Positions 4,169-31,401 of a stretch of 64,000 nucleotides of DNA are shown here, in pieces (position 1 is the stretch's first letter; each line of letters begins with the position of its first letter). Source of the DNA: a virus (lineage: Duplodnaviria > Caudoviricetes); the IMG/VR virus record IMGVR_UViG_3300012974_000008, positions 4,409 to 68,408 of that record; one strand, 5' to 3'. The position numbers and the translations under genes are program-made. Under the pieces are notes generated by a model. It was not told the origin of the DNA and ran no database searches. It saw nothing but the letters and a program-made list of their open reading frames with translations.

Positions 4169-6036
4169 CAGGGCACCACGTAGAGCTTTCCCACCTCGCC
4201 AGTCGCCGGCAGTGGCCCGAAGACCACGGGGCTGGACTGCAGTGAGGTGTCGGCCCTGTCGAGTGAGACCTGGACGTCGCTGGCGAGCTTCGACCTCGCG
4301 ATGGTGGGGATTCGCGCTGCGGCGAAGGTGCCCGAGGTGACCTCGCTGGCGGCGTGACTGTGCGCCGCGTTGGCCTTGGCGTCGAGTGCGGCCTGGGTTG
4401 CGGTGGAGATCGGCTTGCTGGCGTCGCTGGTGTTGTCTACGTTGCCCAGGCCAACGTCGCCCTTGACCAGGGTTACATTGCCGGTCCTGCCCGCAACCGA
4501 CGCGACCGCATCGGTGGTGTCGGACTTCTCCCACCGGTCGCCGTTGTAGATGACGTAGTCCCCGACATCGAACGTGATGTTGCCGGCGCCGAAGTTGCGG
4601 GTGCCTGCGGTGCCAACGCGGTAGACGTCGCCCTGATCGCCAGTGGTGTTGGCCAGTGCCGGGGTGTTCGTCGAAGCATTCCAGACACCCTTGTACTCCA
4701 TGATGGAGGAAGGCAGCTGGGAGACAGGCACTTTGCCGCCGGCGTCGAGGCTGGCGTAGCCGTTGGCGACACCCTTGTTGGCCATCTTCTCCGCTGGGGC
4801 CACCGCTCCGTCAACATAGTTCCTCGTGGCGGCATGATCCACGTCTACCGGGTCGGCAAACTTGGCCCGGCCGTTGCCGTCCCGGAGGACCAGCGAGTTG
4901 TTTGCGGCGCTACTGGTGAACGGGATGGTGGTCGGGTTCCCCGAGCCGTCATTGGAGTAGGCCCGGTTGTTTCCAGCGGCCCTGGCGACCTTGGTGTCGA
5001 CGTAGGCCTTGCGCGCCAGGTGGTCATTGCTGGTGGGATCTGCCGAGTATGCGATCGGGCCAAGCATGGTCCCGCCACCCAGCGCCAGGAAAGACGCCTC
5101 AAGCAGCGGCGAATTGTATGCCAGGCAGAACAGCGAGGTGATTCGGAACGACGCGTTCATGAAGTTCTGAAAGGTGTACCGCAACTTCGTCAGTGGCGCC
5201 GTCGCGTCGGATGGCACGCTGACTCGCGTGATGATGAGTCCCGAGGTGTTCGTGCTTCGCAAATCGAGCACATGCCAGGCATTGCTGTAGAACCCCTCGA
5301 TCTGCACAGAGTTGGCCCGGAAGCTGGTCGACATAGCGACGCCGACCACCGTTCCGTACCGGAAGGATGTGTGACAATCAACCGTGGCGACAATCGTGTC
5401 CGTCGGGGCAACCGGGATGCTCATCGACTGCACGTTGGGCTCAAACACCCGCAGCTGAGTCTCGACCGTGACTCCCGGCGCTCCCCCGTTCTTGGTCACA
5501 GTCAACCCACCACCGCGGGCTACGTTGTAAGAGAGGTCGTTGAACAGGTGTGGCAGATGGGTGAATCCGGTCGACTCGGGCGCCCATACGCCTACCGCCC
5601 CGACTGCGCCCGGCGGCGCGATCACATTGCCATCGAGGATTCGCGGCGTGGTCGAGTCCACGTAGGTCTTGGTTGCCGTGCTCATCGGCTTGCTGGCGTC
5701 GCTGGTGTTGTCGACGTTGCCCAGGTCGACGTCGGACTTGGTCAGCGAGACTGCGCCGGTGCGGCCGTTGACTGTGGCAACCCCGCCGGCGTCACCCTTG
5801 TCACCCTTGTCGCCTTTGTCTCCCTTTATTCCTTGCTGCCCCTGGGGTCCTCGGTCGCCCGGGTCACCCTTGGCGCCGCGGTCACCCTTGTCACCCTTGT
5901 CTCCCTTGTCACCCTTGGGTCCGGGGTCACCCTTGACCGGAATGAACTGTGCGGTACCGGGCTTGGAGAACGTCAGGACCTCGGAGGCGTCGGTCTGAAC
6001 GTTGACGGTGCGATCGTCGGACCCGATGAGCTGCAT
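4168..6036 (-). CDS. Tail fibre with collagen-like Gly-X-Y repeat
   Basis: KGDPGPKGDKGDKGDKGDRGAKGD... tract; duplicated GRTG.V.L.K.DV.LGNVDNTSDASKP.STAT module; start MQLIGSDD at 6036. Confidence 0.85.
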   Translation of the reverse strand: MQLIGSDDRTVNVQTDASEVLTFSKPGTAQFIPVKGDPGPKGDKGDKGDKGDRGAKGDPGDRGPQGQQGIKGDKGDKGDKGDAGGVATVNGRTGAVSLTKSDVDLGNVDNTSDASKPMSTATKTYVDSTTPRILDGNVIAPPGAVGAVGVWAPESTGFTHLPHLFNDLSYNVARGGGLTVTKNGGAPGVTVETQLRVFEPNVQSMSIPVAPTDTIVATVDCHTSFRYGTVVGVAMSTSFRANSVQIEGFYSNAWHVLDLRSTNTSGLIITRVSVPSDATAPLTKLRYTFQNFMNASFRITSLFCLAYNSPLLEASFLALGGGTMLGPIAYSADPTSNDHLARKAYVDTKVARAAGNNRAYSNDGSGNPTTIPFTSSAANNSLVLRDGNGRAKFADPVDVDHAATRNYVDGAVAPAEKMANKGVANGYASLDAGGKVPVSQLPSSIMEYKGVWNASTNTPALANTTGDQGDVYRVGTAGTRNFGAGNITFDVGDYVIYNGDRWEKSDTTDAVASVAGRTGNVTLVKGDVGLGNVDNTSDASKPISTATQAALDAKANAAHSHAASEVTSGTFAAARIPTIARSKLASDVQVSLDRADTSLQSSPVVFGPLPATGEVGKLYVVP

Positions 6037-24300: not shown

Positions 24301-25286
24301 CTAGAATCCAAGCTCCTTCAGTGCTTGCTTGGCTTCTTCGCGATCAAGTCGACGTCGAACAGCTTCGACGGCCGAGACGGGTCGGGGTGTGGGTCGAACC
24401 CGCGGTGGACGTTTGCCCTTGGGCAGGTTCACGCCGATGAGAGTGGAATTGAGGACCTTGACGCTGTCGTTGAGTTGCGCGAGCAGATCTGCTTCGCGTG
24501 TCCATCCAACGAATGAGGTCGGAGATGTTCGGACATCCTCCCCCTCCTCTTCTTCTGGGGGTGCGATGCCGCTTTTGAGCATGCGCTCGCGCTCGACGTC
24601 ATCAATCAGCCTCTGCGCCTTGACGAGTTCCTCGGCGAGCTTCTCGTTGGTGAATATGGCTGACTTGTAACGTGATTCACCCGGCAACCCGGTGATGAAT
24701 CGGTGGAGCAGAGGCCAAGGGCGATCTCCTCGCATGAACTCATGCAGAGTGAATCCTCGATCCATGAGATCGCCCTCGATGGCCCAGCCGTAGGCCTCGA
24801 TGATCTCGACTAGGCCGACGATCCCCCCGGCATCGTGGCCGCGCTGGCCTTGATGGCATCCATCTGGCCACCGAAGAAGTACTCGGTGAGATCCTGCGCG
24901 AAGCGCAGTGCCACCTGGACCGGGAACGGCCCGAGGAACTTCGGCCAGATCAGATCGAAGGCGTCATCGCCCAGCAACGCCTTGATGTAGGGCTGGACGT
25001 CCTTGACGTCCACGTCGCCGTGGATGTCGCAGAGGTTGACGATCGCCAGCGCACGGTCGGCGGTGTCCGGGGCGGTGATGTGGATGATGTTGTCTGCACC
25101 GAACCCGTCGAAGGGGTAGGGATCCTGGGGGGCGTACTCCCCCATCACCTCATTGAACAGCGTCCAGAAGCGCGACGGCTTCTCCTCCTTGTCACCCGCG
25201 GTCTCGCTGGCGGTGGGGGCGTCCGTGGTGGTTGCGTCGGTGACACCCTCGGAGGCGGCGCTTTCGGTGCTGACTTCGTCGATCAT
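24301..25286 (-). CDS. Tail assembly chaperone, long form via -1 frameshift
   Basis: G GGG GGA slippery heptamer at 24828-24822; the -1 frame reads GIVGLVEIIEAYGWAIEGDLMDRGF... into ORF 24301..24765. Confidence 0.88.
24810..25286 (-). CDS. Tail assembly chaperone, short form
   Basis: 158 aa between major tail and tape measure. Confidence 0.88.
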   Translation of the reverse strand: MIDEVSTESAASEGVTDATTTDAPTASETAGDKEEKPSRFWTLFNEVMGEYAPQDPYPFDGFGADNIIHITAPDTADRALAIVNLCDIHGDVDVKDVQPYIKALLGDDAFDLIWPKFLGPFPVQVALRFAQDLTEYFFGGQMDAIKASAATMPGGSSA

Positions 25287-25730: not shown

Positions 25731-27092
25731 TCACGGTCGGTAAGCTAGCCCAGCTTCTCGGACCTGATCGATCGTGGCTACCGAAATCCCCGAAGCCGCT
25801 ATGTAATCGACTATCGCCTGATGGTCGGCGACCGAGAAGTCATTGGCTATCCCCTTCGTGGCCGGCAGGTCGTGGAACACCAGGATTAGCCAGGTCTCGT
25901 TGGCAATCGCCCGGTCGATCTCGGCCTGGATCTGAGCGACGGTCAAGTTGCCGCAGTTCTGGCCATACATCCGCCGGGGTAGCGAGGGGTTCTGCATTTC
26001 GTCTGCGCCCGCGGCAGAGAACCGCCCGAGCGCCAATCTTCCTGCGCCGTAGAACTTGCGTAGATCCTGCTCGGCGTCGGCGTTGACCATACCGTTGGGG
26101 TAGGCGAAAGACGTGCTGGCGTACCCCCGCCGCTGCTGCCAGGACCGAAGGGCGCGGAACTCTGCGACACGCTCTTCCGGGGTCATTCCGGTTACTGACT
26201 GAACATGCCGCGCATAGGTGGTCGCGTGTGCGCCGATCTCCCAGCCGGACGTGAAAGCGAGTGAATCCACCTGCGCCTCTGTGAGGTACCCGGGCTGCCC
26301 TATACGGTCCAGGATCGGGAACAGGACGCCGGAGAATCCGTGCTTATCCAGGTGCGGTCGTGCGACGGTATAGTGCGAGGAGAAGGAGTCGTCGTAGGTG
26401 AGGGTGACCACGCCCCCGGGGAATATGGGCACTGGATCGGGGACGGTTTCGATTCGCCCAAGTCGGACGGTTGCAGCAACATTCCGGTCGTTGATGAGAA
26501 TCCGCATGAACGTCAGGGCTGACCGATCCGGGGCGCCTGTGGCAACCGCGGTCGCCCAGGGTAGGGCGATCGGCACCCACTCGCCGGCCTTGTAGGGGCG
26601 TTGCACCTCTGGGATGCCGGTCGACGAAAAAGCGGACTCCAGCGTGTAATAGCCAGTGAACGCCGCACTGTCTGAGAGGAGGATGCGGATCCGGCCAAGC
26701 GTATCTGGTGCGGCAACCTTGACCCAGATCCGATACATCCTGTCATCGGGGATTGGGTTGAGGCCTGATGCCTGCACGATTGCCGAGGCGCCGGTACCGC
26801 CAGTGGTTACCCGAAGACTCTGTGTGCCGAATGCGAACTCGGACGTGTCATTCAGGTTGCTGGTGCCACCGCCGGGCGACTGGATTGTGAACCCGTGCCC
26901 CGGCTCGAAGTTTGTGACGACCCTCGCGTCCTGGCGGGCGAACTGAGCAACGCCGCCTTCGCCGCGGGGAGCATACGAGCTGTCGGCATCCCGCTTGGTG
27001 ATCCGGTCGTCGATTCCGTCAAAGATGTTGTCAAAGAAGGGCTTGTTGGCTCGGGTGACGCCGTCGGTCACATTCGGTCTGTTGTAGGCCAT
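25731..27092 (-). CDS. Fibre-like protein with C-terminal polysaccharide deacetylase (CE4/NodB) domain
   Basis: TLTYDDS, WEIGAHATTYARH, FAYPNG, LILVFHD = CE4 motifs; N-terminus MAYNRPNVTDGVTRANKPFFDNIFDGI resembles virion fibre N-termini. Confidence 0.85.
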   Translation of the reverse strand: MAYNRPNVTDGVTRANKPFFDNIFDGIDDRITKRDADSSYAPRGEGGVAQFARQDARVVTNFEPGHGFTIQSPGGGTSNLNDTSEFAFGTQSLRVTTGGTGASAIVQASGLNPIPDDRMYRIWVKVAAPDTLGRIRILLSDSAAFTGYYTLESAFSSTGIPEVQRPYKAGEWVPIALPWATAVATGAPDRSALTFMRILINDRNVAATVRLGRIETVPDPVPIFPGGVVTLTYDDSFSSHYTVARPHLDKHGFSGVLFPILDRIGQPGYLTEAQVDSLAFTSGWEIGAHATTYARHVQSVTGMTPEERVAEFRALRSWQQRRGYASTSFAYPNGMVNADAEQDLRKFYGAGRLALGRFSAAGADEMQNPSLPRRMYGQNCGNLTVAQIQAEIDRAIANETWLILVFHDLPATKGIANDFSVADHQAIVDYIAASGISVATIDQVREAGLAYRP

Positions 27093-27105
27093 GAAGGTCT
27101 CCGGG

Positions 27106-27150
27106 AAAATAGAAACGCGGCGGGCGGGCCACTAGAGCCAGCCCGCCGCG
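27106..27150 (-). terminator. Intrinsic terminator after major tail
   Basis: CGCGGCGGGC/GCCCGCCGCG stem followed on the minus strand by TTTCTATTTT. Confidence 0.75.
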
Positions 27151-27156
27151 CTGCGG

Positions 27157-27240
27157 TCAATGGATGACGAAGGCGTCCCCGACGGTGAGGCGGTCACCCA
27201 CCACTGGGGCGCCACCTCCCGGCGGGTTCGTCAGTTTCCC
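27157..27240 (-). CDS. Predicted -1 frameshift extension of the major tail protein (25 aa)
   Basis: G GGA AAC heptamer immediately before the TGA; -1 frame LTNPPGGGAPVVGDRLTVGDAFVIH*. Confidence 0.7.
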   Translation of the reverse strand, partial: GKLTNPPGGGAPVVGDRLTVGDAFVIH

Positions 27241-27899
27241 GCGAAGCCGTGCTCGGCCTCGAGCGCCTTCCAGCCCGGACCGCAGATGATGGTCCTGACG
27301 GCGTAACCCGCGTCCTCGTCCACCTTGGCCCGGCCGGTGATGTTGTAGTCGATCGCGCCGTCCTGCGACCACGACTGCTCGCCGACTTCGGTGATGATGA
27401 AGTTGGGGCAGTACTTGACGATGTAGATCGCACGGTCGCCCTGGCCGTCGACGGTGATGAAGGCGGCGCGGTGGTAGATCACGTCCGGTGCGGTCGGATC
27501 GGCGAATGCGGTCTCGCCGGTCTGCGCGTCGGGGGTGACCGCGCTGTAGTCGGCGTTGTGGTACAGCTCGAGAACCTTGCGGTTGGTCTCCTGTGCCACG
27601 AAGTTCACCGTGGTGTTGCGCGAGATGATGTCGGTACGCGACGACTCGAGCAGGCCCCAGGTATCGACCTCGGAGACCTCGGTCTCCGGGGTGAAGGTCG
27701 GCGGGTTCTCCTTCGAGATCGCGCCGAGCGGCTCATGGCCTTCGGGCTTGTTGAAGACGATGGTCGAGGGCGGGCCCGCGGTGAACGTGGTCCACGAGGT
27801 CGGAACGGGAGCCGACCGCGGGGCGAAGAGGATTCCGCCGGCCAGGGGCTTGCGGATCAGGCTCTTCTTGATGCCCTGAATGTCGTTGAGAGTGGCCAT
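27231..27899 (-). CDS. Major tail (tube) protein
   Basis: LIRKPLAGGILFAP, VDTWGLLESSRTDI, actinophage tail-tube pattern; position after tail terminator. Confidence 0.9.
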   Translation of the reverse strand: MATLNDIQGIKKSLIRKPLAGGILFAPRSAPVPTSWTTFTAGPPSTIVFNKPEGHEPLGAISKENPPTFTPETEVSEVDTWGLLESSRTDIISRNTTVNFVAQETNRKVLELYHNADYSAVTPDAQTGETAFADPTAPDVIYHRAAFITVDGQGDRAIYIVKYCPNFIITEVGEQSWSQDGAIDYNITGRAKVDEDAGYAVRTIICGPGWKALEAEHGFAGN

Positions 27900-27909
27900 T
27901 ATTGCTCTC

Positions 27910-28401
27910 CTAGCAATTGATGGAAGTTGGTGTGGTGCCTCGTGCTCCGGCGAAGAGTTCGAGGTACTCGGCAGCTCGAGAAAGGAGTTTCAGATCCTCT
28001 TTAAGAAGTCCGATTGCCGTATTGCACTGGGAGCAGAGGAGTCCCCGCTTTTCCCCAGTTGCGTGACAGTGATCTACGTTCAGTTTCGAGTCGACGGGGG
28101 CGAGTTCGCAGATGGCGCATTTGCCGCCCTGTTCGACGAGCAGATCGTTGTACTCAGCGAGGGTGATCCCGTATCGCGCACGTAGTTTGCGGTCGGCATC
28201 ACATTCTCGGCATTTGTTGTCGTAGCCATTCCGGCGCGACTTGTGGGCGTTGAAGTGGTCAATCGACTTCACTTCGCCGCATGCGACGCACCGTCCATAG
28301 GAAACGTCGCAGTCCGGACATAGCAGCAGGCCCTGTGTTCGTGAGCTTCTTGTCCAGGTTTTCCGGCAGTGCACGCAAGTGCGCTCTGTCGCTGTGGACA
28401 T
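27910..28401 (-). CDS. Endonuclease VII-like HNH (probable homing endonuclease)
   Basis: YGITLAEY..QGGKCAIC..VDHCHATGEKRGLLCSQCN; N-terminal CxxC zinc motifs. Confidence 0.88.
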   Translation of the reverse strand: MSTATERTCVHCRKTWTRSSRTQGLLLCPDCDVSYGRCVACGEVKSIDHFNAHKSRRNGYDNKCRECDADRKLRARYGITLAEYNDLLVEQGGKCAICELAPVDSKLNVDHCHATGEKRGLLCSQCNTAIGLLKEDLKLLSRAAEYLELFAGARGTTPTSINC

Positions 28402-30369: not shown

Positions 30370-31401
30370 TCAGCCGTTGACGTCGGCGACCATCAGCGCC
30401 TTGGGGTTGTTGAGGATCGGGAGGTTGATCGAGTCAACCAGCGCAGCCTCCTGGAAGGGCGGGCCCGACTTGATGACCACACCGACCAGGCCGGGCATGT
30501 CCGAGAAGGACGAGTCGGTCTGCGCGGCGTTGAGCAGCTCCATGGCGGTGGCCGAGACACCCCAGTAGGTGTTGCCCAGGTCTGCGTAGTTCTGGGGGAC
30601 GAAGACGACCTTGCCCTCCGGGATGACGCGCTGGCCGTTGATCATCTGGTCGTAGACCGCGACGATCGGGGGCAGGTCGAAGGCCGAGAGGGCTGCGTTG
30701 ACAACCTCATTCGACACGAACCGCGGTCCGTTGCCGACGTCGAGACCGGCCGCGGCGCGGATCTCCTTGCTCGCGCGGAGCGCACCCATGGTCTTGCGGG
30801 AGACGATCTGACCACCCGGGGCCTGGCCGTAGCTGTTGGCGTAGACCTCGGTCCAGGCCAGCTCGTCCTCGATCGGGCGTGCGTCCTCGGCATTGGCCCA
30901 GGGGGTGTCAGCGGCGACGAAGTGAGAAGCCGGGACACCGAAGTCGGCCTCGGTGAAGACGCCATTCTCGGCGACCGTCACACGGCCGGTGCTCAGGAGC
31001 TTTCCGCGGTAGACCTCGACGGCGTTGCGGATGTTGATCACGATCTTCTCGAGGTCGTTGTAGATCGCCTCGACGATCGCAGCATCCGAGCCGCCGCTCT
31101 GGCGAACCTTCTCGAGCTGCAGGCGTTCGTATTCGCCCTTGCCGCCCTGGAGGCTCATCGGCAGCATCTCGATCTGGCGGACCGAGAAGCCATCCCGCTT
31201 GATACGCGGGATGTTGCCGTCGTACGACCGGTAAGGCGCGGTCGAGCTGGTCAGTTCGACGTCGGTGACCTCGACACGGGTGTCTTCGATCGGCTTGTCC
31301 GGCAGGAACTGGGAGAGGATGTTGCCGGCGGGGTCGGGAACCCGGCGGACGAACGCGGTGGCCGCATCCGGGTGCACCGGCGCATTGAGAATGTTGGTCA
31401 T
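30370..31401 (-). CDS. Major capsid protein (lambda gpE-like family)
   Basis: 343 aa; LSQFLP, PYRSYDG, LSTGRVTV, KVVFVP; follows decoration and scaffold genes. Confidence 0.9.
   Translation of the reverse strand: MTNILNAPVHPDAATAFVRRVPDPAGNILSQFLPDKPIEDTRVEVTDVELTSSTAPYRSYDGNIPRIKRDGFSVRQIEMLPMSLQGGKGEYERLQLEKVRQSGGSDAAIVEAIYNDLEKIVINIRNAVEVYRGKLLSTGRVTVAENGVFTEADFGVPASHFVAADTPWANAEDARPIEDELAWTEVYANSYGQAPGGQIVSRKTMGALRASKEIRAAAGLDVGNGPRFVSNEVVNAALSAFDLPPIVAVYDQMINGQRVIPEGKVVFVPQNYADLGNTYWGVSATAMELLNAAQTDSSFSDMPGLVGVVIKSGPPFQEAALVDSINLPILNNPKALMVADVNG

Follow-up and report, generated by a model that had tools for sequence, protein, structure and literature searches.

Frameshifted tail tube proteins are already known from Bacillus phage SPP1, from the Listeria phages PSA, A118 and A500, and from Lactobacillus phage A2. 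In SPP1, a +1 shift near the 3' end of gene 17.1 reportedly adds a fibronectin type III (FN3) domain to about a quarter of the tube subunits (gp17.1 and gp17.1*). The G/GT tail assembly chaperones of phage lambda are likewise said to arise by frameshifting, at the heptamer G_GGA_AAG, and the products of chaperone frameshifts are not virion components. In PSA, A118 and A500, an elongated version of the tail shaft protein Tsh is made via a +1 shift at CCC_UGA (Zimmer 2003 and Dorscht 2009, as cited in PMC5009743), with long extensions that were described as immunoglobulin (Ig)-like, and in A2 a -1 frameshift affects both the major head gene and the major tail gene (PMC5009743). Recombination of decoration modules has been put forward to explain why tail recoding is indifferent to the direction of the shift, +1 or -1 (PMC5009743). 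Here, we examined the major tail (tube) protein gene in a stretch of 64,000 nucleotides (nt), referred to as the window, from a Gordonia phage of the Caudoviricetes (Duplodnaviria; IMG/VR virus record IMGVR_UViG_3300012974_000008, positions 4,409 to 68,408). The overall best explanation of the data is a programmed -1 frameshift that adds a conserved peptide to the tube protein, to which we assign a probability of roughly 70%. The shift site, the stop codon, the peptide with its hairpin, a terminator and a downstream gene with an N-terminal adaptor appear, from sequence comparisons, to form a portable cassette that has been transferred to different tube genes among phages of Gordonia and Rhodococcus.

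The predicted locus resembles those of PSA, A118 and A500 in that recoding would take place at the last codon or codons of the major tail gene, with the stop codon as a stimulant, and would yield 2 tube forms; the cassette of phage SpeedDemon even has the identical CCC_UGA site. It differs from them in its high-GC actinobacterial host, in the -1 heptamer that serves as the site in the window, in the predicted addition of only 16 to 25 residues and in the linkage to an adaptor enzyme gene. With SPP1 and A2 it would share an outward C-terminal addition to a fixed minority of tube subunits by recoding at the 3' end, the direction of the shift being apparently indifferent. In those phages, however, the addition is an autonomous folded decoration domain, whereas the peptide here is too short to fold alone and is the proposed recruiter of a separate protein. 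As in lambda G/GT, there would be a -1 slip on a G_GGA_AAN-type heptamer within the tail gene cluster, but in a different gene (the tube gene, not the chaperone pair by the tape measure gene) and with a different role. The closest solved fold is that of gp13 of mycobacteriophage Douge (PDB 8zdj), which also has an outward C-terminus carrying a host-surface-binding decoration. Its C-terminal Ig-like domain "protrudes outward", is present in frame on every subunit and binds glycans (PMC13033339), whereas the frameshift-dosed peptide of the window is proposed to recruit enzymes that modify glycans or lipids.

The identification of the product of 222 amino acids (aa) as a phage tail tube protein is secure. 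It matched Pfam PF25681 (Phage_TTP_17; E-value 2.4e-9, 37.6 bits, cut-off 27) and PHROG 476 major tail protein (E-value 1e-74), and its AlphaFold2 model, with a predicted local distance difference test (pLDDT) value of 80.7, had the Douge tail tube protein 8zdj_S as its top Foldseek match (E-value 1.4e-19, template modelling score 0.86, 29% identity). The gene is about 88% identical in nucleotide sequence to the major tail genes of WilliamBoone, OneUp and their relatives, and the match ends no more than 2 bases from the heptamer. The open reading frame (ORF) terminates in GCG GGA AAC TGA, with the heptamer G_GGA_AAC in the X_XXY_YYZ register of the zero frame (Table 1).

A preliminary description of the window had proposed that a hidden -1 frameshift adds a short peptide, and not an Ig or FN3 domain, to the major tail protein. 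Sequence and translation bore out the position of its heptamer at 27240-27234 and the reading register, the -1 frame continues for 25 codons exactly as written to a stop at 27159-27157, and this stop does fall just ahead of an intrinsic terminator, a T-tailed hairpin at about 27152-27106. A stable hairpin past the heptamer was found as well (27233-27165), although its best pairing differs from the ACCCGCC/GGTGGGT arms that had been suggested. The canonical layout of a -1 programmed ribosomal frameshifting signal, with an X_XXY_YYZ heptamer, a spacer of 5 to 9 nt and a stem-loop, is predicted at the site: the GC-rich inner stem begins 8 nt past the heptamer, and the outer 7 base pairs take in the stop codon.

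A heptamer abutting the stop codon of its own gene was identified in only 1 of the 61 putative genes in the window, the tube gene, where about 0.15 would be expected, and in-frame heptamers occur in the window at a rate of 0.24% per codon. The openness of the -1 frame in itself means little, because a -1 extension of at least 25 codons is open in 70% of the window genes. GGA is rare among the glycine codons (9%), as is GGG (11%). A motif expression for the core of the extension matched a single site in the 64 kb, and an Rfam search of positions 26900-27400 returned no family. With 25 aa, of which about 16 form a conserved core, the extension is too short to be an Ig-like, FN3 or CBM domain; the 3 hexapeptide units of the core recall 1 turn of a beta-helix, but this is a resemblance only. 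Taken alone, the data from the window are suggestive, and it is the comparative data that lift the case above chance.

Table 1. Features of the tube gene locus and its surroundings; positions are those of the window.
Feature	Position	Strand	Basis or remark
Shift site G_GGA_AAC (proposed -1 slip), abutting the UGA stop	27234..27240	minus	Sequence reading and translation
Extension in the -1 frame, 25 codons (27234-27160) and stop (27159-27157)	27157..27234	minus	Translation; predicted product 247 aa
Conserved core of the extension, about 17 residues, 3 hexapeptide-like units, reaching the C-terminus	27160..27210	minus	Alignment of 9 lineages
Pro/Gly linker insertion of 6 codons (18 nt), only in this phage; provides the 5' arm of the hairpin	27211..27228	minus	Nucleotide alignments (SpeedDemon, Catfish, BiggityBass) and folding
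Predicted stimulatory hairpin, located immediately 3' of the shift site	27165..27233	minus	RNAfold -41.7 kcal/mol, z -3.5; also -44.5 kcal/mol, z -3.1
Intrinsic terminator-like hairpin with T-rich tail	27106..27152	minus	Begins 5-8 nt past the extension stop; near-identical in SpeedDemon
Major tail (tube) protein gene, 222 aa	27231..27899	minus	Zero-frame stop TGA 27233-27231
N-terminal adaptor, about 45 aa, invariant Y3, R5, P6, T13, D25 and G26	26958..27092	minus	tblastn and conservation; sole copy in the window
Gene for the 453-aa protein: N-terminal adaptor, poorly modelled middle region, CE4 polysaccharide deacetylase domain	25731..27092	minus	
Tail chaperone pair	24810-25286 / 24301-24765	minus	
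Capsid gene	30370-31401	minus	

The tube gene regions of 10 relatives were compared first, and further phages were sampled via homologues of the adaptor gene. A homologous peptide, comprising the last 16 or so residues, was encoded out of frame after the tube genes of 15 other Gordonia and Rhodococcus phages, namely SpeedDemon, LittleMunchkin, BiggityBass, Zipp, Verity, Shivanishola, Sanjuju, Nordenberg, Bibwit, Kroos, JKSyngboy, Catfish, ChewyVIII, MacGully, and ReT1v-2. In all sampled phages with a tube gene upstream, the gap of 96 to 145 nt encodes the peptide out of frame, with the stop codon just ahead of a hairpin, and the adaptor gene follows directly after the peptide in 15 of 15 phages and in the window, whatever the enzyme body. 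In 8 of the 10 relatives compared first (OneUp, WilliamBoone, BrutonGaster, Culver, Smoothie, Yvonnetastic, Daredevil, and Bantam), the small gene that precedes the chaperones is the next one after the tube gene, and both the heptamer and the peptide are absent from these 8. In total, neither peptide nor shift site was found in any of the 13 relatives that lack the adaptor gene. The preliminary description had staked its proposal on conservation of the extension, and had suggested checking whether shift site, peptide and downstream gene co-occur across phages. The extension is conserved in the 15 phages, which represent at least 3 groups of tube proteins without significant blastp similarity, and the 3 elements behave as one block, all being missing from OneUp, Smoothie and the others to which the tube gene is most closely related; the hidden frameshift is thereby supported by comparative data.

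A profile of the peptide was built from 9 other phages, leaving out the window and SpeedDemon, and searched against the six-frame translation of the window (120,536 residues). Its sole significant match was to the 17 C-terminal residues of the -1 frame (E-value 1.5e-5; next best above 6), and across all compared loci there was only one additional match, to the untrained SpeedDemon site (E-value 1.2e-3). Codon position 2 was the most conserved among the 9 lineages, with 268, 206, and 301 differences at the 3 positions in pairwise comparisons that are not independent of each other. In an alignment of Shivanishola, Kroos, Zipp, and Verity, the 3 indels between the shift site and the stop codon of the peptide were 3, 6, and 3 nt long, whereas 5 of the 6 indels right past that stop were not multiples of three. 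The insertion of 18 nt in the extension of the window is also a multiple of three. It was also noted that Mollymur (L008:3132-3185) contains a degenerate peptide of 16 residues in the -1 frame, with an ending like that of SpeedDemon and without a shift site or a downstream adaptor gene, possibly all that is left of a lost cassette.

Throughout the examined phages, the frame of the peptide agrees with the direction of the fitting shift site. The window, Catfish, and BiggityBass have G_GGA_AAC-UGA, and the identical 10 nt GGGAAACTGA end all three tube genes; no significant blastp similarity was detected among the 3 tube proteins, although those of the window and Catfish both match Pfam TTP_17. 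C_CCU-UAG was identified in LittleMunchkin, ChewyVIII, and ReT1v-2, and C_CCC_CCN, located one codon ahead of the stop, in Zipp, Verity, Shivanishola, Sanjuju, Nordenberg, Bibwit, Kroos, and JKSyngboy (the Zipp, Vividuovirus, and Kroos group). In SpeedDemon, the tube gene ends in GCC CCC TGA and the peptide follows directly in the +1 frame (CCC_UGA). The cassettes of the window and SpeedDemon are closely related, and the stop codon is separated from a shared AAC CCG anchor by 2 bases in the window and by 1 in SpeedDemon. This difference of 1 nt is exactly the difference between a -1 and a +1 frame for the peptide, and the kind of shift site differs accordingly.

The tube proteins of BiggityBass and LittleMunchkin are 97% identical, and their genes differ in the last 2 codons, which determine the shift type, and in the peptide and the enzyme that follow. 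On this evidence, the exchanged unit begins at the shift site. In the structural genes, CCT accounts for 4.5% of the proline codons. It is nevertheless the final codon in 5 of the 7 cassette-bearing tube genes that end in proline, as compared to none of the 9 without a cassette, which have CCG (8 genes) or CCC (1 gene; exact test, p ~0.005). We infer that, following a -1 slip, CCC would be the better partner for a tRNA that decodes CCU through wobble.

A hairpin starting +1 to +9 nt from the shift site was predicted in all 11 lineages that were folded. In most of them, its arms are formed by the codons for Ala-Pro-Val-Ile and for Val-Ile-Gly-Asp, with GGG as the glycine codon in 8 of 9 lineages. 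In the window, the 5' arm consists of the Pro/Gly linker codons and the 3' arm of the conserved core. The best-conserved unit of the peptide, the last one, falls outside the main stem. Because the window rebuilds the structure while keeping the peptide, we read this as 2 constraints that act at once, one on the peptide and one on a stimulatory hairpin embedded in its codons.

Residues 226 to 346 of the 453-aa protein encoded downstream match PF01522 (E-value 1.4e-9, 38.4 bits, cut-off 23.1), and the protein is a predicted CE4 deacetylase. In an AlphaFold2 monomer model, the deacetylase domain is confident, residues 1 to 40 have pLDDT values of 53 to 71 and residues 41 to 120 fall below 50. Homologues with 50% to 73% identity are found in more than 100 Gordonia phages, and a search of IMG/VR with the deacetylase gave no relatives. 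The SpeedDemon downstream protein, annotated as a glycoside hydrolase, shares only the N-terminal 45 or so residues with the protein of the window. A tblastn search with its first 49 residues located this adaptor in 96 phage records, where the bodies fused to it are of the deacetylase, esterase, GDSL lipase, glycoside hydrolase, GH55 spike, and "tail fiber" kinds. It matches PHROG 35351, a family of unknown function. A word-indexed protein search with adaptor residues 1 to 60 recovered the query itself only, and an exhaustive HMMER search yielded 30 representative clusters; 4 metagenomic adaptor clusters, on contigs that were too short or had no tube gene, gave no information on context.

Several deviating arrangements of adaptor-bearing genes were noted. 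In Sanjuju (L011:1247-3862) and EMoore (L024:1-2096), 2 or 3 consecutive adaptor genes (hypothetical, hydrolase/esterase, and deacetylase) lie behind a single tube gene, and several enzymes may share one attachment site in these phages. MacGully (L020:1795-2580) has a second adaptor-bearing gene amid the minor tail genes, distant from the tube gene. The deacetylase homologue in Shivanishola (L015:2501-4110) is annotated as genes 24 and 25 and was matched by tblastn in 2 pieces, and the gene seems to be split or frameshifted.

In the mechanism that we propose, the signal would consist of the heptamer G_GGA_AAC, the slow-to-decode UGA right behind it and the stable hairpin. The majority of the ribosomes would terminate and release the 222-aa tube protein, and a minority, with UGA occupying the A site and the hairpin located where the mRNA enters, would slip by -1 and make a product of 247 aa. 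The 25 added residues would comprise the Pro/Gly linker and the conserved C-terminal peptide of about 16 residues, joined to the tube protein through Gly-Asn-Leu, or through Gly-Lys-Leu if the slip comes before the decoding of Asn. Ribosomes quite probably do slip there, and the G_GGG_GGA slip site that the phage already has for its chaperones was counted in favor of slipping in the tube gene.

On some of the tube subunits along the tail, the peptide would then face outward. Its exposure on the tail surface is suggested by the C-terminus of the Douge protein, which points outward, and by the homologues that carry a Big_2 domain at the same end. Among distant tube homologues (P0070-P0072 and P0058), we observed an in-frame C-terminal Big_2 Ig-like domain (302 aa) and, in one of them, a Gly/Pro/Asp-rich tail of 35 residues (257 aa), which we regard as other ways of decorating the same tube C-terminus. 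The linkage of the genes points to a role of the peptide as a docking site for adaptor-bearing enzymes, here the deacetylase, for which we consider the odds to be slightly less than even. Docking is the most economical reading because the association with the adaptor holds across enzyme bodies and tube families, and it is consistent with the multi-adaptor arrays of Sanjuju and EMoore as well as with the Mollymur remnant, where there is no adaptor gene. More tentatively still, the locus could be a modular tag-and-adaptor system, in which the frameshift-dosed peptide would be the socket and the adaptor of about 45 aa the plug, the enzyme bodies would be swappable, another tag and adaptor would co-vary as a second pair, and the efficiency of slipping would set the number of enzymes per tail.

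The candidate for such a second pair, here called type B, was found in Forzavirus, Nevillevirus, and Rhodococcus prophages. Out-of-frame Leu/Val-Pro-Gly repeat peptides are encoded behind tube genes that end in C_CCT-stop in Boopy (L013:2370-2500), Neville (L016:2355-2450), and prophages of Rhodococcus qingshengii (L034:3150-3290) and R. hoagii (L035:3150-3300). The next gene encodes another conserved N-terminus (Met-x-Phe/Tyr-Asn ... Trp ... Pro-x-Thr-Ala ... Glu-x-Gly) on lipase or deacetylase bodies. None of the type B peptides matched the peptide profile. We treat type B as a lead only, because the peptides are translations of near-palindromic hairpins that may function as RNA only. In the R. 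hoagii prophage, a 421-aa ORF is recorded on the opposite strand (L035:3286-4551), where the plus strand starts a protein with the type B N-terminus directly after the tube gene; the recorded ORF is probably a wrong-strand call in GC-rich DNA.

Several observations weigh against a programmed frameshift with a docking peptide. The added stretch is brief, -1 frames are usually open in so GC-rich a genome, and A_AAC is a weak A-site slip sequence in Escherichia coli. The stability of the hairpin was clearly above that of shuffled sequences in only about half of the lineages, and since the hairpin arms overlap the conserved codons, constraints on the RNA inflate the similarity of the peptides. In MacGully (L028, tube stop at 2175), the tube gene is accompanied by a peptide and an adaptor gene, but the shift site, G_GGA, a single codon ahead of TAG, is weak. 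Nor do all cases count as independent, because a shared shift type may mean that cassettes of the same type descend from one ancestor. Moreover, the peptide and the adaptor gene are adjacent, and their co-occurrence could reflect physical linkage alone. A search of 40 tube protein homologues revealed no in-frame fusion of the peptide, and no virion proteomics for cassette-bearing phages was found in the literature.

An alternative is an untranslated, structured 3' RNA, a hairpin for mRNA stabilisation or processing, that travels with the enzyme cassette. The "peptide" would then be a by-product of the arms of this hairpin, or what remains of the 3' end of a donor gene in the course of decay, as exemplified by Mollymur. 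The most conserved codons are those of the hairpin arms, the glycine codon is nearly always GGG even though GGG makes up 11% of the glycine codons, 2 hairpins follow the tube gene in the cassette-less relatives too, and the type B peptides of Boopy, Neville, and the 2 Rhodococcus prophages translate near-palindromic hairpins. We nevertheless consider this explanation unlikely. The window builds its hairpin from different codons, those of the linker paired with the core, and still keeps the peptide; the last unit of the peptide and the stop codon, both beyond the main stem, show the strongest conservation, with synonymous variation; and indels are multiples of three only as far as the peptide stop. 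A relic could also land in any of the three frames, whereas the junctions always fit the shift site, the +1 shift at CCC_UGA included, and the rare CCT and GGA codons stand exactly at the shift sites.

A real frameshift could also be regulatory, if slipped ribosomes pass through the first hairpin, come to a halt 5-8 nt ahead of the terminator and hinder its folding, such that a corresponding share of transcripts reads through into the enzyme gene, with the peptide being incidental. Attenuation of this kind needs no conserved amino acid sequence, C-terminal end or in-frame indels, and we hold it to be quite unlikely, although the stop codon of the extension lies 3 to 16 nt ahead of a terminator-like hairpin in 9 of 10 lineages, the order of shift site, hairpin, stop, terminator, and enzyme gene in the cassette is constant, and a promoter scan gave no promoter-like site for the enzyme gene itself. 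Yet a terminator near a stop codon is commonplace, and ReT1v-2 has no terminator hairpin there. Very improbable, in our judgment, is a separate micro-ORF of 10 to 20 aa that is translated by termination-reinitiation at the NTGA overlap or from an internal GTG or ATG. The TGA stop forces NTG in the -1 frame (GTG in Zipp and the Vividuovirus phages, CTG in the window), the window has GGGAGG 10 nt upstream of an in-frame GTG GTG, and there is an in-frame ATG within the core in Catfish. However, no start codon precedes the core in SpeedDemon, BiggityBass, LittleMunchkin (TAG stop, TTA), or ChewyVIII, internal starts would remove the conserved Ala-Pro beginning, and the conserved shift sites and the rare CCT codon would be left unexplained. 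Two further candidates were rejected: transcriptional slippage, as the runs are only 3 to 6 nt long, and stop-codon read-through, as in no case does the zero frame encode the peptide.

The genes surrounding the tube gene are all on the minus strand, in the order capsid, head-tail connectors, endonuclease VII-like, tube, 453-aa protein, chaperones, and tape measure (encoding 3025 aa), which is the usual order in siphophages. A 163-aa ORF at 27910-28401 (minus) is located between the tail terminator gene and the tube gene and is annotated in relatives as endonuclease VII or Holliday junction resolvase; its position inside the structural operon is unusual, yet conserved across this phage group. 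The chaperone pair is joined by the -1 site G_GGG_GGA at 24828-24822 (minus), three sense codons ahead of the TAG of the first ORF, and this site represents the expected G/GT-type frameshift. An identity of the tube gene site with the G/GT frameshift was rejected, since the chaperone pair lies elsewhere and has a site of its own.

No description of a frameshift in the tube gene of Gordonia or Rhodococcus phages was found in the literature, and none of the GenBank records for the 15 phages annotates the tube gene as joined or recoded. What would be new, relative to the frameshifted tube proteins described previously, are the actinobacteriophage hosts, the minimal size of the addition, the portable unit of shift site and peptide with at least 4 interchangeable sites, and the fixed partnership with an adaptor-enzyme gene. 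If true, a large number of sequenced actinobacteriophages have a second programmed frameshift in their tail genes that is missing from the annotations, given that the adaptor is present in 96 GenBank records. Recoding could then supply a minimal docking peptide instead of a whole decoration domain, and shift site and peptide would be a portable unit in which the direction of the slip is interchangeable. This suggests a natural handle for the display of chosen proteins along phage tails, and offers an answer to the question of how Gordonia and Rhodococcus phages mount depolymerase-like enzymes, such as deacetylases, esterases, and glycosidases directed at the mycolata envelope, on a flexible tail.

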